Of a stretch of 51,766 nt of DNA, positions 7,684 through 45,633 are shown piece by piece. Under the pieces are notes generated by a model. That model searched no databases and was not told the DNA's origin. It saw nothing but the letters and a program-made list of their open reading frames with translations. The position numbers were made by a program, and so were the translations under genes. The stretch is from contig CAWURN010000004.1 of the NCBI GenBank assembly GCA_963924835.1, positions 1-51,766 of the forward strand, written 5' to 3'. This DNA is from Candidatus Nanopelagicaceae bacterium. GTDB taxonomy: Bacteria; Actinomycetota; Actinomycetes; Nanopelagicales; Nanopelagicaceae. Within the stretch, counting starts at the first letter, position 1. Every line of letters begins with the position of its first letter.

Positions 7684-9186
7684 ATGTCTAAGGTAATTGT
7701 TATTGGCGCCGGAATTGGTGGCATGTCTGCTGCTGCAAGATTGGCAAAAACTGGACACGAAGTCACTATCTTTGAAGGCAGCGATCGCACTGGCGGAAAA
7801 TGTCGAACTAAATGGATTGGTAAATACGCTTTTGATACTGGGCCATCACTGTTAACTCTGCCTGCAGTTTATCGTGATCTTTTCTTGAAGACTGGAAAAC
7901 GGATTGAACATATACTAAAAATTGATCCAGTCGATCCAGCTTTTGAATATAACTTTGCTGACAAAACCAGAATAACTTTTCCAAATCTTTCGCTAAAGGG
8001 CACCTGTGATTCGATCGAATCAGTATTAGGTAAAGAAGCGGGAAATCAATGGCATAACTTGATGCAGCGTGCTGAACATATGTGGGATGTTTCCAGAGGG
8101 CCATTTGTGGAATCTGAGTTGAAGTCAATTTCCAGATTGATTGCCAAAAAGGGGTTCCTCGGCAACTTAAAGGTAATTGCACCTTTAACATCACTTCGAA
8201 AGCTAACTGGCAAATATACGAGCAACCCATATCTCTCAAAGATCATCGATCGCTACGCAACATACTCTGGTTCAGACCCACGTAAAGTTCCGGCAGTCTT
8301 ACTTACAATCGCTTTTGTTGAATCTTCATTTGGTGCTTGGCACATCAAAGGTGGAATCGGCCAACTCTCGAATGCAATTGAGAACCGTTGCCTAGAACTA
8401 GGTGTTAAGTTTGAATTGAATACAACCGTCACCAAAATTACCACAAAGAATTCTGCTGCTTCTGGTGTTGAAGTTGATGGAAAGTTTTATCCCGCAGATT
8501 TCGTTGTTGCTAATGCCGATGCCGAACTTGTTTATAATAAATTATTAGATGGCAACGTGAAAGAAGCGTCACCAGAGCGAAAGAAATTAGCTAAAGCCAC
8601 TAAATCATTAGCCGGATTCTCGCTTCTATTAGGACTAGATAACAGCAAAATATCTGGACCTGCTCCAGTGATGCCACATCATTCGATCTACTTTCCAAAC
8701 GATTACGACGCCGAATTCGATGACATTTTCGTAAAGAAGATTCCAGTCACAGATCCAACAATTTATATTTGTGCACCAAATGATCCAGAAATGGTTAAAG
8801 GAAATAATCTTGAGGCTTGGTCAGTTCTAATCAACGCGCCAAGACATGAACCAGGTTCTGGCTGGGATTGGAATAACGGTTCAGAGTTGTATGCCGCAAG
8901 GATAATTGCAAAGTTAGATGAGTTGGGGCTAAGAGTTAGTGAACGGCTGGAAGTAATGGAGTTTCAAACTCCAGCAGATTTGGAAGAAGAAGTTAGTGCT
9001 CCTGGTGGCTCGATTTATGGAACTTCAAGTAATGGCGCACGTTCTGCATTTCTTCGTGCAAGTAATACCTCTCCTCTAAAGAATTTGTATTGTGTTGGTG
9101 GTTCGGCTCATCCCGGTGGCGGACTCCCCTTGGTTGGAATTAGCGCAGAAATTGTCGCTGAAGCAATTGGGAAAGCTAGCTTGTAA
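7684..9186 (+). CDS. CrtI-family carotenoid desaturase/oxidase (CrtD/CrtP-like)
   Basis: GAGIGG Rossmann motif, FDTGPS, C-terminal GGSAHPGGGLP; second CrtI paralog in the window. Confidence 0.8.
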   Translation: MSKVIVIGAGIGGMSAAARLAKTGHEVTIFEGSDRTGGKCRTKWIGKYAFDTGPSLLTLPAVYRDLFLKTGKRIEHILKIDPVDPAFEYNFADKTRITFPNLSLKGTCDSIESVLGKEAGNQWHNLMQRAEHMWDVSRGPFVESELKSISRLIAKKGFLGNLKVIAPLTSLRKLTGKYTSNPYLSKIIDRYATYSGSDPRKVPAVLLTIAFVESSFGAWHIKGGIGQLSNAIENRCLELGVKFELNTTVTKITTKNSAASGVEVDGKFYPADFVVANADAELVYNKLLDGNVKEASPERKKLAKATKSLAGFSLLLGLDNSKISGPAPVMPHHSIYFPNDYDAEFDDIFVKKIPVTDPTIYICAPNDPEMVKGNNLEAWSVLINAPRHEPGSGWDWNNGSELYAARIIAKLDELGLRVSERLEVMEFQTPADLEEEVSAPGGSIYGTSSNGARSAFLRASNTSPLKNLYCVGGSAHPGGGLPLVGISAEIVAEAIGKASL

Positions 9187-9796
9187 GTCGCTTGTACAGA
9201 CTTCCTGTTAATTGGGAAAGCGCAATAAATTGCATTGCCACCCAGATAATTGAGATTGCAGTATCGAGCTCAAAATTAAGAACATTTGCAACTATTGCAA
9301 TAAAGATAAGGCTCGCTCGAACTGGACGTTCGCAAATTGTTACGATTCCTACTTCTTCATAGCCAAGCCCGCCCGCTCTTGCCCGCAAATATTCTTGAAT
9401 GTACGTTGCAAGTAGCGCAAGGAAAACGAAGATGGCTGGGGCACCTAATCTATAGAGTGCGAGTGCCCAGAAAATTTCGGATAGCCGATCTACGAATGAA
9501 TCAGTAAAGGCACCAAACTTTGAGGTAACTCTTGAAACTATCGCGAGTGAACCATCAATCCCATCGAAAAATAATGAGAGGACTAGAAAAATTGCGGCTG
9601 CCCAACTATTTGCAAATTGCCAAAGGGCAACTGCTGTTGCTAACCCAGCAAGCGTTAGGAAATTTGGTGTGACTTTCAATTTGGCTAGTGGTTTTACAAC
9701 TGCGAATGAAATTTGCAGCCAAGCCTTAACGATTCCCTCGATCTTCGCATCCCCATGCAATTTTGACCAGGTCGCGAAAAACTCTTCTTTACTCAC
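9176..9796 (-). CDS. CDP-alcohol phosphatidyltransferase family protein
   Basis: TPN and DGIDGSLA...FGAFTDSFVDR signature. Confidence 0.85.
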   Translation of the reverse strand: MSKEEFFATWSKLHGDAKIEGIVKAWLQISFAVVKPLAKLKVTPNFLTLAGLATAVALWQFANSWAAAIFLVLSLFFDGIDGSLAIVSRVTSKFGAFTDSFVDRLSEIFWALALYRLGAPAIFVFLALLATYIQEYLRARAGGLGYEEVGIVTICERPVRASLIFIAIVANVLNFELDTAISIIWVAMQFIALSQLTGSLYKRLTS

Positions 9797-10646
9797 GGCT
9801 AGTTAATCCAAGGTTTGTGCAAATTTCCAAAGTTGCCGAAGCGGTATTCATTGTGTAGAAATGTAAACCAGGAACCTTCAGCGCAATTAACTCAGCACAG
9901 AGTTTTGTTGCAAGTTCGGCACCGACTTTTCGCACCACATCTGGGTCTTCGGAAATTTCATTAAACAACTTAGAAATATCGCCCGGAATTGGCGTGCCAC
10001 CAAGTTCGGCCATGCGATTTAATTGTTTAACATTTGTAATCGGCAAAATTCCAGCAATGATTGGGAGATTAGATCCCCGCGCCGATAACTTTGAGACCAA
10101 AGTTTCCCACTTAGAGCTTTCGAAAAAGAACTGTGTTGTTGCAAATGTTGCACCTAATTGCTCTTTGCGAATCAGAACATCAATATCTTTCTCTGAATTA
10201 CCACTACTTGCCGGATGTCCATCGGGAAATGCCGCTACTCCAACATCAAATCCACCTTGGCTAATTGCAAGTTCAACTAATTGATCAGCATGATCAAAGC
10301 CACCGTCAGTTGTAACCCAATTTGCGGCTGGTCCCCCAACTGGATCGCCGCGAAGTGCCAGAATGCTCTTTATTCCTGCACCTTTGTATTGACTAAGAAT
10401 TTCAAGCAATTCATCTTTTGTAGAACCCACGCAGGTTAAATGTGCAACAGTGCCGCGCCCAGTTCGCTTGGTAATCTCTTTTGTAATCTGGATTGTGCGA
10501 TCGCGAGTGCTTCCACCCGCGCCATATGTCACTGAAATAAAATCAGGCGCAATGGTTTCCAGCGCAGAGCTAGCCTCCCAGAGTCGCGCTTCTCCAGCGT
10601 CGTCCTTTGGTGGAAAAAACTCCACCGAGACTGTCATATCTTTCAT
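9789..10646 (-). CDS. metF: 5,10-methylenetetrahydrofolate reductase
   Basis: SVEFFPPK, SVTYGAGG, AHLTCVG, LALRGDP, TQFFF and LHFYTMN motifs. Confidence 0.95.
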   Translation of the reverse strand: MKDMTVSVEFFPPKDDAGEARLWEASSALETIAPDFISVTYGAGGSTRDRTIQITKEITKRTGRGTVAHLTCVGSTKDELLEILSQYKGAGIKSILALRGDPVGGPAANWVTTDGGFDHADQLVELAISQGGFDVGVAAFPDGHPASSGNSEKDIDVLIRKEQLGATFATTQFFFESSKWETLVSKLSARGSNLPIIAGILPITNVKQLNRMAELGGTPIPGDISKLFNEISEDPDVVRKVGAELATKLCAELIALKVPGLHFYTMNTASATLEICTNLGLTSRE

Positions 10647-10654
10647 AGCGGGTC

Positions 10655-10664
10655 AGGTTACCCT
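10655..10664. promoter_or_regulatory. Overlapping back-to-back -10 elements for metF and crtE (leaderless)
   Basis: AGGTTACCCT: minus-strand TAACCT 8 nt before the metF ATG and plus-strand TACCCT 6 nt before the crtE GTG; no SD in the 24-bp gap. Confidence 0.6.
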
Positions 10665-10670
10665 TACGCC

Positions 10671-11744
10671 GTGAGTTTTTCTGCTACCAATGACCTTAAA
10701 GAGATTCGTAATTTAGTAAATCAAGAATTACTTAACTTCGTGGCAGTTGAGAACAAATACCTCAATGAGATTGCCTCTGAATTGGCTCCAGTTGCTACCG
10801 CTATGGAGCGCTTCCTGTTAGACAGCGGAAAACGGCTTCGCCCACTCTTTGCATATATTGGATTTCTTGGAACTGGTTCCAAGCCCAGTGTAGAAATTCT
10901 TCGCGCTTGCGCTGCTCTTGAATTGGTTCATGTTTGTGCGCTTATGCACGATGATGTAATGGATGCATCCGATACTCGACGTGGTGCGCCCTCAATTCAT
11001 AGAGCATTTGAAGCGTTGCATGCTGAAAAAAAATTAAGTGGATCCAGCGAGCAATTTGGAATTTCGGCAGCCATTTTACTTGGAGATTTAGCACTTGTTT
11101 GGTCTGCAAAGATGTTGCACCAATCCGGCATCGATAATGAATCGATGATTCGCTCGTTCCCAATGTATGACGAGATGCGAGTTGAATTAATGGCTGGGCA
11201 ATTTCTCGATATTTACGAGCAAGCATTTGCCTCTGAGTCTGTTGAAAGATCTTTAAAAGTTGCTCGATATAAATCTGGTAAATACACAATTGAACGGCCT
11301 CTTCACTTCGGTGCAGCACTTGGCGGTGCAAACGAAAATCTTCTCAAAACTTACTCTGATTACGGTTTGCCACTTGGTGAAGCGTTCCAACTTCGAGATG
11401 ATGTACTAGGGATTTTCGGTAATCCTGATGAAACAGGAAAGCCGGCAGGTGATGATTTACGTGAAGGAAAACGCACGGTTCTTCTTGCCAAAACCATGGA
11501 ACTTGCGGATGAAAAGTCCAAGGCAGTTATCAAAAGCGCATTGGGCAATCCAAGATTGACCCTGGAAGATGTAACTGCAATTCGTGAAATTATCATTGGC
11601 TGCGGCGCACTTGTTGAGGTTGAAAAACTTATTTCTTCGATGACTTCCAGCGCGCAATCGGCCCTCGAACATGGTGAAATTGACCCAGTGGGAAGGGTTG
11701 CATTGACGCAGCTTTTAACCATAGTCACCCAACGAACTCTTTAA
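10671..11744 (+). CDS. crtE: Polyprenyl (geranylgeranyl) diphosphate synthase
   Basis: GKRLRP, HDDVMD, RRG, FQLRDD and GDDLREGK motifs. Confidence 0.9.
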   Translation: MSFSATNDLKEIRNLVNQELLNFVAVENKYLNEIASELAPVATAMERFLLDSGKRLRPLFAYIGFLGTGSKPSVEILRACAALELVHVCALMHDDVMDASDTRRGAPSIHRAFEALHAEKKLSGSSEQFGISAAILLGDLALVWSAKMLHQSGIDNESMIRSFPMYDEMRVELMAGQFLDIYEQAFASESVERSLKVARYKSGKYTIERPLHFGAALGGANENLLKTYSDYGLPLGEAFQLRDDVLGIFGNPDETGKPAGDDLREGKRTVLLAKTMELADEKSKAVIKSALGNPRLTLEDVTAIREIIIGCGALVEVEKLISSMTSSAQSALEHGEIDPVGRVALTQLLTIVTQRTL

Positions 11745-11758
11745 GTATTGGATATTAA

Positions 11759-13243
11759 ATGCCGGCTCGCGTAAAAGGACCTACTGATCATGTTGTAATT
11801 GTTGGCGCTGGACTTGGCGGCTTAAGTGCTGCGCTCCGACTTGCAGGCGCTGGTCGAAAAGTTACTGTCATCGAACGCGAAAGTGTTCCGGGTGGCCGCA
11901 ATGGCTTAATGAATAAAGATGGATATTCCTTCGATACTGGACCATCAGTTCTGACAATGCCTGACTTAATCCAAGATGCTCTTTCCTGTGTTGGCGAGAA
12001 ACTTGAAGACTGGTTGGAATTACTCCCATTGAAGCCGTTGTATCGCGCTTTTTATCATGATGGTTCCACTCTTGACGTGCACGCCGAAACTGGTCGCATG
12101 CAAGAAGAGATTAGAAATGTAATTGGCCCAGATGAAGCCGCAGGTTACGGTAGATATGTTGAATTCGTAACAAAGCTTTATAAATATGAGATGAAAGATT
12201 TTATCGACCGTAATATTGATTCACCTTTTAACCTTTTAACTCCAAATTTAGCAAGACTTGTTGCACTAGGTGGTTTCCGCAGACTGGCTCCGAAGGTAAA
12301 TGACTTTCTCAAGGATCCTCGTACTCAAAAGGTTTATTCATTTCAAGCAATGTATGCCGGTGTAAGCCCGCAACAGGCCCTAGCAATTTATGCAGTTATT
12401 GCATATATGGATTCAGTAAATGGTGTCTTCTTCCCGAAGGGCGGAATGCATGCGGTTCCCCGCGCACTTGCCGGAGCTGCTGCGAAGCATGGAGTTGAAT
12501 TTAAATACAACCAGACCGTTACATCTATTGAACATTCTGGTGGGCGTGCGCGCGCAGTTATAACTGCAAATGGCGATCGCATCCCATGTGATGCCGTGAT
12601 TCTAAATCCAGATCTTCCGGTTGCTTGGCGCGAACTACTTGGCCGAACTCCGCCATCTGTTAAGCGTCTAACTTATTCGCCTTCATGCGTGACTATGTTA
12701 ATTGGCTCTAATAAGAGTTATGACCGCTTGGCTCATCACAATATTCACTTTGGAAAATCATGGGATGGCGTTTTCGATGAACTCATCAAGAAGAAGACCC
12801 TAATGACTGATCCAAGTTTGCTAGTCACAGTGCCAACTCACGATGATAAAGATTTAGCTCCCGCCGGAAAGAACTCATATTATGTTCTCTTCCCCACCCC
12901 AAATCTTTCAGCAGACATTGATTGGAAAGTTACCGGGCCTAAATATCGGGACCAGATGTTGCGCACGATGGAAGAACGAGGCTACGAAGGATTTGCTGAC
13001 TCCATTGAAGTCGAACACATGACAACGCCACTTGATTGGCAGAATCAGGGCATGGAACAAGGCGCCCCATTTGCAAGTGCACATACCTTCTTCCAAACCG
13101 GGCCATTTCGTCCAAGAAATATTGCAAAGGGCTTTGAGAATGTTGTTTTCGCTGGCTCTGGAACTCAACCTGGTGTTGGTGTGCCAATGGTTTTAATTTC
13201 TGGTCGACTTGCAGCAGAAAGAATAGTGGGACCTGTTAAATAA
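11759..13243 (+). CDS. crtI: Phytoene desaturase
   Basis: GAGLGG, FDTGPSVLT, HTFFQTGPFRP and GTQPGVGVPMV motifs; between crtE and crtB. Confidence 0.92.
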   Translation: MPARVKGPTDHVVIVGAGLGGLSAALRLAGAGRKVTVIERESVPGGRNGLMNKDGYSFDTGPSVLTMPDLIQDALSCVGEKLEDWLELLPLKPLYRAFYHDGSTLDVHAETGRMQEEIRNVIGPDEAAGYGRYVEFVTKLYKYEMKDFIDRNIDSPFNLLTPNLARLVALGGFRRLAPKVNDFLKDPRTQKVYSFQAMYAGVSPQQALAIYAVIAYMDSVNGVFFPKGGMHAVPRALAGAAAKHGVEFKYNQTVTSIEHSGGRARAVITANGDRIPCDAVILNPDLPVAWRELLGRTPPSVKRLTYSPSCVTMLIGSNKSYDRLAHHNIHFGKSWDGVFDELIKKKTLMTDPSLLVTVPTHDDKDLAPAGKNSYYVLFPTPNLSADIDWKVTGPKYRDQMLRTMEERGYEGFADSIEVEHMTTPLDWQNQGMEQGAPFASAHTFFQTGPFRPRNIAKGFENVVFAGSGTQPGVGVPMVLISGRLAAERIVGPVK

Positions 13244-14143
13244 ATGGATGAGTTAACGGTTGCCGGAATAACTGATCCCCAACTTAGGGCTTCGTATACC
13301 GAATGCAAACGTTTAAATTCGCTTCATGGAAAAACTTATTACCTAGCAACGCTTCTTCTTCCACCTGCTAAACGTCCCTTCGTGCATGCGCTATACGGCT
13401 TTGCTAGATATGCCGATGAAATTGTTGATGATCTAAATTCGACGCTTACTGATGAAGAGAAAGCAGTAGAACTATCAACTTGGGGAAACCAGGTATTAAA
13501 AGATATTAAAAGCGGAACAAGTTCAGACCACATTGGCCGAGCGCTCGTCGATACCGTTACAAGATTTGATATCCCAATTTCCTATTTCGAAGCATTTTTA
13601 CATTCGATGACCATGGATTTAACGGTGAGCGAATACCAAAGTTTTGAAGACCTCATGGAATATGTTTACGGATCTGCATCAGTAATTGGTTTACAAATGC
13701 TTCCTATCTTGGGCTCGACTTCACCCCAAGCACTGATTGCGGCCGAGAAACTTGGAACTGCATTTCAGCTGGCAAATTTCATCCGAGATGTTGATGAAGA
13801 TTTAGACCGCGGGCGAATTTATCTACCTATTCAAGAGTTAGCAGCGCATGGCGTTACCCATGAAATGTTGGTAGAAAGAGTTTTAACTCCACAAATTAAA
13901 GCCGCACTTCAAGAACAGATCGCCCGGGTCCGACGTTTGCAAGAAGAGGCTGCTCCTGGAATCAAATTGTTAGCACCGCAATCTCAAGCCTGTATTGAAG
14001 CCGCATCAGAGCTCTACTGTGGGATTGTTGATGAAGTAGAGAAAATTGACTACGAAATTTTTACTAAGCGTGCGAAGACTTCAACTTGGCGCCGAATTAA
14101 GGTTGCTTTTCCAGCACTACTTAGGGCGCGCGCAGCACGATAA
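13244..14143 (+). CDS. crtB: Phytoene synthase
   Basis: LYGFARYADEIVD, FQLANFIRDVDED and GRIYLP motifs. Confidence 0.93.
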   Translation: MDELTVAGITDPQLRASYTECKRLNSLHGKTYYLATLLLPPAKRPFVHALYGFARYADEIVDDLNSTLTDEEKAVELSTWGNQVLKDIKSGTSSDHIGRALVDTVTRFDIPISYFEAFLHSMTMDLTVSEYQSFEDLMEYVYGSASVIGLQMLPILGSTSPQALIAAEKLGTAFQLANFIRDVDEDLDRGRIYLPIQELAAHGVTHEMLVERVLTPQIKAALQEQIARVRRLQEEAAPGIKLLAPQSQACIEAASELYCGIVDEVEKIDYEIFTKRAKTSTWRRIKVAFPALLRARAAR

Positions 14144-14160
14144 TTTGCTAACGTTTGCCG

Positions 14161-14244
14161 GGACGGGAGCCGAGAGATTGGCTGAGAGGGTCTGAAATTC
14201 AGATCGACCGTAGAACCAGTTCGGTAATGCGAATTGGAAAGGGG
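14161..14244 (+). ncRNA. TPP-family riboswitch, variant lacking the J4/5-J5/4 pyrophosphate-binding loop
   Basis: CGGGAG, P3 GCCGA-GAGA-TTGGC, CTGAGAG, extra hairpin GGTCTGA-AAT-TCAGATC, GACCG, TAGAACC and L5 GTAATG; P4/P5 is a continuous CCAGTTCG/CGAATTGG helix; lies directly before the SD of a PnuC gene. Confidence 0.85.
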
Positions 14245-14251
14245 TTAGTCG

Positions 14252-14842
14252 ATGAATTTAATGATTACAGTTTTTACTGCTTGGGGATATGAACTTTCCC
14301 TTTTAGAACTTCTTGCATTCATAACTTCAATTATCGGGGTGTCACTTGGGGTTTTTGGCCCACGAATTACTTGGCCATTTTGGAGTATAAGTTCTCTGCT
14401 TTATGCCGCACTGTTCTTTCAGTGGAATTACTATGCAAGTGGTTTTCTGCAATTCATCTTTATCGCGGGTGCAATCGCTGGTTGGTTTGGCTGGGGACCA
14501 AAGGGAGCAAAACCAAAGCGACTTACTAAACGTGATGCTGCAATCTGGGGTGCTGCATATTTAGTCGCCTGGTTTTCACTTTATCCAATTCTTAAGAAGA
14601 TCGGTGCCGCAGCATCTTTAACTGATGCTTTTGGTTTTGTAGGAAGTTGCATTGCACAATTACTCATGGTGCTTCAACGCTATGAAAGTTGGATAATTTG
14701 GGTGGTAGTTGATCTGGTTTATACCTACCAATATTGGAATGGCAAAAATTATTTAACAGCAATTCTTTACTTTATCTTTGTATTAATCGCTGTTGCTGGT
14801 TGGAAGCGGTGGTTACGTGAATCCGCAACTTCCAGAGCTTAA
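14252..14842 (+). CDS. pnuC: PnuC-family vitamin transporter (PnuT/thiamine-type by regulation)
   Basis: LELLA, LQF, GWFGW, DAF...AQLLM.LQRYESWIIWVVVD and GWKRW motifs; preceded by a TPP-like riboswitch. Confidence 0.85.
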   Translation: MNLMITVFTAWGYELSLLELLAFITSIIGVSLGVFGPRITWPFWSISSLLYAALFFQWNYYASGFLQFIFIAGAIAGWFGWGPKGAKPKRLTKRDAAIWGAAYLVAWFSLYPILKKIGAAASLTDAFGFVGSCIAQLLMVLQRYESWIIWVVVDLVYTYQYWNGKNYLTAILYFIFVLIAVAGWKRWLRESATSRA

Positions 14843-15374
14843 GCAGTTACTACCTAAACTCGTCGCGAAGTGTGGCGCGTGCATCGTCATAACTATTGAT
14901 GGCCCAGCCGGTTCGGGCAAAACAACTTTGGCGAAAAATCTAGAATTAGAATTAGATTCGGTTCATACAATTCATATGGATGATTTATATGAAGGTTGGA
15001 GCTCTACCCTTACACCGAAGCTGACTGTAAAATTGTCAAAAATTTTAGAGTGTGTAAAGACCTCAGGTGAAGTAATTTATTCGCCATTTGATTGGGGGGC
15101 CAACAAACTAAAAGCTGAAATGCACATTGCGGCACCAAAATATTTAATTATTGAAGGTGTTGGGTCTGGTCAATTAGCCGTCAAGAATTCAGTATCCCTG
15201 GCGCTCTGGATTGAAGTCCCAGACCATATGGGTTTAGCCCGGGTCATTGAACGTGATGGCCCGGCGGTAGCTGATTACATGCCCGCATTTCTTGTGGCGC
15301 AAAACATTCATTTTGAAAAAGAAGGCACTAAGAAGAGGTCGGATTACCACTTAAGTGGGCTGGGCATTGTCTAA
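14817..15374 (+). CDS. P-loop nucleoside kinase (uridine kinase/NRK-like)
   Basis: IDGPAGSGKTT Walker A, HMDDLY, IIEGVG and RVIERDG; probable GTG start at 14817 overlapping the pnuC end (the track starts at 14793). Confidence 0.75.
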   Translation: MNPQLPELKQLLPKLVAKCGACIVITIDGPAGSGKTTLAKNLELELDSVHTIHMDDLYEGWSSTLTPKLTVKLSKILECVKTSGEVIYSPFDWGANKLKAEMHIAAPKYLIIEGVGSGQLAVKNSVSLALWIEVPDHMGLARVIERDGPAVADYMPAFLVAQNIHFEKEGTKKRSDYHLSGLGIV

Positions 15375-45476: not shown

Positions 45477-45521
45477 TACAGACCTCCCAGAAATTAAGGG
45501 GGTAGCGTTTTTTATTCGTTA

Positions 45522-45633
45522 CCCACGCTTGCCAATTGCAATTTGCAACTGACCTGGTCTTCACCCGGAGCACCCCACCGTGGTGGAGGGTTGCCGTCCA
45601 GTAAGCCGGGGCTAAAACCTGGAACTCATGACC
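45522..45633 (-). ncRNA. SAM-IV riboswitch
   Basis: Minus strand GGTCATGAG...AGCCCCGGCTTACTGGACGGCAACCCTCC...GGTGGGGTGCTCCGGGTGAAGACCAGG...GCAAGCGTGGG upstream of metY; TACAAT -10 element at 45642-45647. Confidence 0.9.

Follow-up and report, generated by a model that had tools for sequence, protein, structure and literature searches.

In the complex of the canonical TPP riboswitch, as set out in passages of PMC7824784 and PMC2018614, the aminopyrimidine of the ligand lies between G42 and A43 and is bonded to G40 and G19, the pyrophosphate is bonded to C77, G78 and two Mg2+ ions, and the thiazole contacts G72. Departures from this scheme are already in print, as a search for reported TPP variants led to statements on P4-P5 variants in two papers. 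A passage in McCown et al. 2017 (PMC5473149), which gives Roth et al. (in preparation) as its source, describes P4-P5 mutants that sense thiamin, TMP and TPP about equally well, and a passage in Sherlock et al. 2022 (PMC9481103), which refers to 'unpublished findings' (ref. 82), states that some such variants favour thiamin or TMP. No description of the sequences of these Breaker-laboratory variants was found in the open literature, the search being restricted to sources outside subscription journals and theses; passages of PMC12632268, PMC11751092 and PMC10573300 contain nothing on them. With regard to the genomic setting, the relevant part of Kang et al. 2017 (PMC5301498) finds pnuC preceded by a THI element in four acI genomes and reads the transporter as PnuT on this basis. 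According to passages of Jaehme et al. 2018 (PMC5749112), PnuT carries thiamine and not TMP or TPP, and Pnu genes often adjoin trapping kinases.

The window, i.e., the whole stretch of 51,766 nucleotides that was analysed, carries between crtB, which ends at 14143, and a PnuC-family gene, which starts at 14252, a putative riboswitch that is probably functional, judging from its sequence and that of its relatives (Table 1). The RF00059 covariance model matches positions 14153-14256 with 35.4 bits (E 7.5e-5), below the gathering cut-off of 54.3, and a scan of the whole window at the Rfam gathering thresholds did not detect the element at 14161..14244. It is the sole RF00059 match in the 79%-complete host genome, and none of the other Rfam riboswitch families matched this RNA. 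The predicted transcript fold has a z-score of -3.98, with 0 of 200 shuffles equally stable. The P2, P3 and UGAGA features with which the canonical riboswitch senses the pyrimidine are present, while the RF00059 alignment places 2-nt gaps in both strands of the P4/P5 internal loop and leaves P1 poorly paired. Several statements of the first-pass annotation are borne out here: the intact pyrimidine-sensing half (P2, P3, UGAGA and L5, seen both in the sequence and in the alignment), the uninterrupted 8-bp P4/P5 helix and the Shine-Dalgarno (SD) tract AAAGGGG adjoining P4. Its inclusion of J2/4 (UAGAA) in the intact core must be dropped, as this strand takes about 40 forms among relatives. A SAM-IV riboswitch (108 bits) lies elsewhere in the window, at 45520-45633 on the reverse strand, and a carotenoid cluster lies upstream at 7684-14143, comprising two desaturase-like ORFs, a polyprenyl synthase-like ORF and the phytoene synthase gene crtB.

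Table 1. Features of the pnuC leader and of the two genes downstream, in window coordinates.
Feature	Position	Strand	Basis or remark
Extended -10 box TGnTAnnnT, predicted	14146..14154 (hexamer 14149-14154)	+	conservation
Pyrimidine-sensing arm (P2, P3, J3/2, P3a)	14164..14210	+	sequence, RF00059 alignment
P2 5' strand CGGGAG	14164-14169	+	sequence
P3	14170-14182	+	sequence; variable in sequence and length among 120 pnuC leaders
J3/2 UGAGA	14183-14187	+	sequence
P3a	about 14189-14205	+	sequence; varies among 120 pnuC leaders
P2 3' strand GACCG	14206-14210	+	sequence
J2/4 junction strand	14211-14215	+	variable among relatives
P4/P5 arm without J4/5-J5/4 loop, 8 continuous bp	14216-14237	+	sequence, RF00059 alignment, leader comparison
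L5 loop GUAAUG, A69 and G72 equivalents retained	14224-14229	+	sequence
SD-like AAAGGGG directly 3' of P4	14238-14244	+	sequence; 16S 3' end of four relatives
pnuC start codon ATG	14252	+	sequence
PnuC-family transporter, likely thiamine importer (PnuT-like)	14252..14842	+	TIGR01528 E 4.6e-21, PF04973; distribution
P-loop small-molecule kinase, PRK06547-like, uridine-kinase/NRK1 fold	14817..15374	+	profile and fold searches

The altered arm is conserved among relatives of the locus. Among 85 distinct leaders found via PnuC, the kinase or RF00059 rather than via the arm pattern (four loci having been dropped, one a distant paralogue and three without a PnuC match), none has the canonical 5' strand of the arm and none has the J4/5-J5/4 internal loop with C77 and G78. 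A 6-nt 5' strand is found in 84 of these leaders and is fully paired in 80; L5 reads GUAAUG in 79 and AUAAUG in 6, and the G72 equivalent is kept in all 85. The distance between P4 and L5 is 8/8 nt in 17 and 7/8 nt in 4 of the 21 canonical members of the host family and 6/6 nt here, in agreement with the first-pass description of an arm 2 nt shorter on each side and devoid of the pocket nucleotides. In a set of 30 distinct 6/6 arms drawn from several lineages, pairing is seen in 95% of cells, compared with 19-46% in slid-alignment controls, and two-sided changes occur at 5 of the 8 arm pairs; the set was partly picked by a pattern fixing arm length and closing pairs, and its related members are not independent. 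The collection pattern gave 120 loci, with 13 lacking arm pairing; most of the 13 are chance matches, and two are TPP-like Intestinibacter leaders with 4 of 6 pairs. Most pattern loci fall in acI/Nanopelagicales, and the viral sequence collection searched for the arm pattern gave no match. The variant is thus real, conserved and covarying; it is neither the decay of one strain nor an assembly error, for which a canonical loop in close homologues would have spoken.

The exact form of the new helix is less constant than its pairing. The flush helix of the window occurs in 57 of the 85 leaders; the other 28 have a 3' bulge of 1-3 nt or an altered P4 at the junction, including a compensatory CU/AG form in one genus. 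What is shared is the loss of the loop nucleotides with retention of pairing, not one exact new helix. As the flush helix is dispensable, the pocket has more probably been lost than replaced by a new one. The earlier proposal of a change in specificity instead of decay therefore holds in part: the arm is conserved and covarying, but the clean, fully paired helix on which the proposal leaned is not required. The nucleotides after P4 also differ between groups. At the first position, 112 of 120 pnuC leaders have A, 18 of the 23 short-arm leaders from other lineages have C, and all 21 canonical host-family members have G; the dinucleotide is AA in 111 of the 120 and GA in all 21.

With the C77 and G78 equivalents gone and the pyrimidine arm, the L5 loop and the G72 equivalent kept, the most likely consequence of the missing loop is a loss of pyrophosphate discrimination. 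G60 and A61 of the canonical internal loop are presumably also ligands of Mg2+-pyrophosphate. The RNA is likely to read thiamine, TMP and TPP alike. Our main reading, to which we give a probability of roughly 0.63, is that a conserved derivative of the TPP riboswitch binds these three vitamers about equally and lowers translation of the importer when vitamin B1 is high.

It is conceivable, if unlikely, that TPP (or TMP) is still preferred, with the phosphates held by a remodelled metal site in the major groove, for example at a G-U wobble. The arm is identical in sequence in 87 of the 120 pnuC leaders, with G-U usually the second pair, and such uniformity could hide a new sequence-specific contact; the same arm precedes the biosynthesis genes thiC and thiE, and TPP is normally the dominant thiamine vitamer in cells. 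Among the 30 distinct arms, however, the second pair is G-U in just 10, with five other pair types in the remainder, and the junction is bulged or altered in the 28 leaders mentioned above. A retained preference would also be at odds with the loss of discrimination that McCown et al. 2017 (PMC5473149) report, in the passage concerned, for P4-P5 mutants.

The short paired arm is also found in Coriobacteriia, Clostridia, Dormiibacterota and others, and has probably arisen more than once. Of 23 short-arm leaders unlinked to pnuC, 20 could be scanned for the gene that follows: 10 precede ThiT, five ThiE, three ThiC, one a DAO/ThiO-like gene and one a sodium:solute symporter. Loci of this kind (L071, L073, L083, L112, L118, L125, L126, L238 and L241-L250) mostly have a P1. 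Two aptamers preceding thiB, L336 (G114:C24:833-941) and L337 (G126:C62:42304-42412), have the 5' UGA but lack the 3' CG equivalent to C77/G78, apparently a second, independent erosion of the pocket.

With regard to P1, the position of the putative promoter is informative. In 118 of 119 pnuC leaders, with 99 different spacers, P2 is preceded at a distance of 7-10 nt by the end of a TAnnnT box (mean 12 and maximum 20 in shuffles), and the extended TGn form is found in 88 of the 119 (shuffles: maximum 4). The transcription start usually lies 6-8 nt from a -10 box. We infer a start at about 14160-14163, i.e., 1-4 nt before P2; a box so close to P2 leaves the RNA likely without P1. A sigma-70 scan with two hexamers found no site; as such a scan needs a -35 box, the -10 assignment rests on conservation. 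The pairing between the 5' and 3' flanks of the 119 leaders is no better than that of shuffles (-1.89 vs -1.69 kcal/mol). The P1 previously put forward, CUAAC/GUUAG, was rejected: it is not conserved and gives no pairing above shuffles, its 3' side mostly reading GUUAAUC in close relatives, and its 5' half is part of the conserved -10 box, with which an overlap had correctly been suspected. With 2 nt between the end of crtB and the predicted -10 box, transcripts may also read through from upstream.

The missing P1 is not confined to leaders with the altered arm. Canonical aptamers of the host family and of the actinomycete CGGGAG/ACCG subtype (L174-L194, L285-L324) give no P1 signal either, and 19 of 21 canonical host-family members share the 7-10 nt spacing between the -10 box and P2. 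In a comparison across the class, in which 11 of 70 loci were unparsed and a bias towards P1 exists among the top-scoring loci, the signal was absent from 29 actinomycete aptamers of this subtype and present in 30 others. In the 23 short-arm leaders from other lineages, by contrast, P1 is apparent (-5.65 vs -3.87 for shuffles). As canonical relatives are equally without a P1 signal, its absence is not a mark of decay. A passage of PMC3890552 places the starts of three C. glutamicum TPP leaders 3-5 nt inside the Rfam model. The chief tension is with E. coli thiM, of which a construct without P1 barely responded to TPP in the experiments described in part of Lang 2007 (PMC2018614), while the RNA studied here appears to be P1-less and without the G that follows P4.

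A rival reading is that the RNA binds no ligand usefully and is a streamlined relic kept as a stabilising 5' structure or a fixed translational damper. The flanks pair no better than chance, P1 is required in thiM (PMC2018614, in the passage just referred to), the arm is predicted to be folded in advance, and diatom TPP aptamers, which are conserved and show no response to thiamine, offer a precedent. We nevertheless consider this quite unlikely, since UGAGA, the P2 strands and L5 are retained (the first two being required by the parser) against free variation in P3, P3a, J2/4 and the spacers, and since the canonical host-family aptamers and the 29 aptamers of the CGGGAG/ACCG subtype are equally without a P1 signal. 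By eye, the variable P3 and P3a of the 120 pnuC leaders appear self-complementary.

In pnuC leaders P4 is followed directly by the SD-like tract and after about 9-16 nt by the start codon, so that neither a terminator nor a separate expression platform fits in between. Judging from four relatives, the 16S 3' end could pair with the SD-like tract and the last G of P4; the duplex includes a P4 G in 119 of 119 leaders, a weak result of an uncontrolled comparison that allows G-U pairs. In the ligand-free ensemble of these leaders, the closing pair of P5 has a probability of 0.93 and P2 of 0.18, and the SD is half unpaired (0.51). An arm that is already folded before ligand binds, as predicted here, may leave little range for switching. 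The CC of the P2 3' strand pairs with the SD region with a mean probability of 0.35 (median 0.18, top decile 0.92), so that in a minority of leaders the logic could be ON instead of OFF. In two RNA runs, 5-10% of the words were present, in contigs from mixed organisms, and the depth peak at the aptamer is not evidence of expression.

Under the main reading, transcription would start 1-4 nt before P2 and yield an RNA without P1. In the absence of ligand the P4/P5 hairpin would be largely pre-formed and P2 mostly open. The aminopyrimidine of thiamine would enter the UGAGA/P2 pocket, the thiazole would meet the G72 equivalent and L5 would dock on P3, giving a compact fold beside, and partly overlapping, the SD that could hinder 30S loading. 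Control would then be OFF, by direct translation attenuation, which is frequent in Actinobacteria. PnuC would import free thiamine, phosphorylation, possibly by the adjacent kinase, would trap it, and ThiL would make TPP.

The distribution of pnuC connects the locus with thiamine. PnuC matches were found in 42 of 48 host-family genomes in a first search and in 267 of 300 genomes in a larger one, where a few are fragments or weak paralogues. Genomes marked as unpublished (G071, G079 and G212) entered some genome tallies only; they supplied no locus, and none of the conclusions depends on them. A close orthologue of this pnuC is missing from all 21 host-family genomes that carry a canonical TPP riboswitch; their canonical aptamers stand before permease genes or before thiB-like, thiC or thiO-like genes. 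ThiB exceeds the cut-off in 13 genomes, and only one of these, some genomes in the comparison being incomplete, has this pnuC, as a contig-end fragment in an assembled bin. This pnuC and the thiB or canonical-riboswitch loci are thus nearly mutually exclusive, and one replaces the other. From this complementary distribution, PnuC is likely a thiamine importer. A distant pnuC paralogue (25-31% identical; L045, L050, L051) is preceded by an RNA that resembles, by eye, an FMN riboswitch, and Kang et al. 2017 (PMC5301498) described the like for a riboflavin transporter. A single in-frame TAA interrupts the pnuC match in two genomes of one genus, G048 (L038) and G096.

Five variant-bearing genomes, four of them at least 98% complete, have no match to TPK, ThiB, TenA or ThiC and no full-length match to ThiD or ThiE, while thiL is present. 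Without ThiC, TenA and full-length ThiD and ThiE, these cells could not use HMP and need intact thiamine. This bears on the suggestion, made in the first-pass annotation, that the RNA may sense HMP or amino-HMP, to which HMP-PP may be added, with PnuC importing that precursor. The pyrimidine pocket is indeed the only one visibly intact, but a precursor sensor is very improbable given the five genomes, the G72 equivalent that is invariant in 85 of 85 leaders, and the presence of the same arm before ThiT, ThiE, ThiC and a ThiO-like gene.

The transporter itself scores as PnuC, and the closest solved structure to the neighbouring kinase in a single-sequence search is human NRK1 (E 6e-4). The operon might accordingly be read as a nicotinamide riboside importer with its kinase, the RNA having switched to an NAD-related ligand; one distant homologue (31%, L043) follows a gene that, from its sequence, looks nicotinamidase-like. 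Such a switch is hardly credible, however. Pnu-family labels do not give the substrate, as noted in a passage of PMC5749112, the pnuC distribution is complementary to that of thiB and the canonical TPP loci, and the five auxotrophic genomes lack ThiB, the other thiamine importer looked for. Moreover, uridine kinases rank above NRK1 in both profile and fold searches.

The kinase gene overlaps the end of pnuC (its start at 14817 is inferred from the sequence, the ORF list having 14793), and the protein has the fold of uridine kinases, NRK1 and phosphoribulokinase. The alignment-based model (95.5) confirms only the fold family, the single-sequence model having a pLDDT of 33. The gene lies 3' of pnuC in every one of the 106 loci that leave 300 nt or more for it, yet in 4 of the 5 canonical-riboswitch genomes tested it keeps its place in the chromosome although pnuC is missing, which makes the linkage weaker than it seemed at first. 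In another family, L211 combines riboswitch, pnuC and kinase in a different setting. Kinase homologues are found in many actinomycetes, and among the matches listed for distant ones only L211 has a riboswitch nearby. A class-wide search for TPK (PF04263), intended as a test of anti-correlation with the kinase, gave nothing beyond short partial matches inside long ORFs. The five genomes with ThiL but without TPK need a thiamine kinase. The adjacent kinase is a candidate for this role, which we assign tentatively, at somewhat less than even odds. A bolder combination, in which the P1-less, pocket-less RNA would actually prefer free thiamine and a thiamine kinase of the uridine-kinase fold would fill the thiamine-to-TMP step, seems to us rather unlikely.

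If it were true, however, the most abundant freshwater bacteria would possess a minimal two-arm B1 sensor together with an importer and a new thiamine kinase. More generally, the vitamer that a TPP-type switch reads in abundant freshwater actinobacteria tells how a scarce vitamin is budgeted. The reported strict requirement for P1 in the E. coli aptamer makes this RNA a clean structural question, and the leader set supplies ready constructs for a variant class announced in 2017. Routine annotation misses most members, which lie below the Rfam cut-off: RF00059 matches exceed it in 16 of 151 host-family genomes and reach E <= 0.01 in 114 of 151. The surprise is limited in that both the concept and the locus were already in print in outline.

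The orthologous locus is very likely the acI pnuC THI element of Kang et al. 2017 (PMC5301498), which the passage concerned treats as an ordinary TPP riboswitch, with no mention there of the altered arm, the missing P1 or the kinase. The trapping operons with PnuT described in part of Jaehme et al. 2018 (PMC5749112) likewise place a Pnu transporter beside a kinase gene; their kinase is ThiN, whereas the one found here has the uridine-kinase/NRK1 fold and also occurs at a locus without pnuC. The HMP-PP riboswitch (thiS motif; Atilho et al. 2019) is another sensor of the vitamin B1 pathway but is, by its title, a terminator-embedded aptamer, while the present element matches RF00059. With RF00059 and E. 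coli thiM the element shares P2, P3, UGAGA, the optional P3a, the P4 closing pairs, L5 with the A69 and G72 equivalents, and, if PnuC is a thiamine importer, a position upstream of thiamine genes; it differs in lacking the J4/5-J5/4 loop, and hence C77/G78 equivalents, in having A for G after P4 and in having no detectable P1. It would thus work like a TPP riboswitch while failing two defining features of one, the pyrophosphate loop and P1. The Breaker-laboratory P4-P5 variants are the closest relatives in kind: the published passages on them do not mention an absence of P1 or acI, but an altered P4-P5 is shared as far as their wording goes, and the element is probably one of these announced, undescribed variants.
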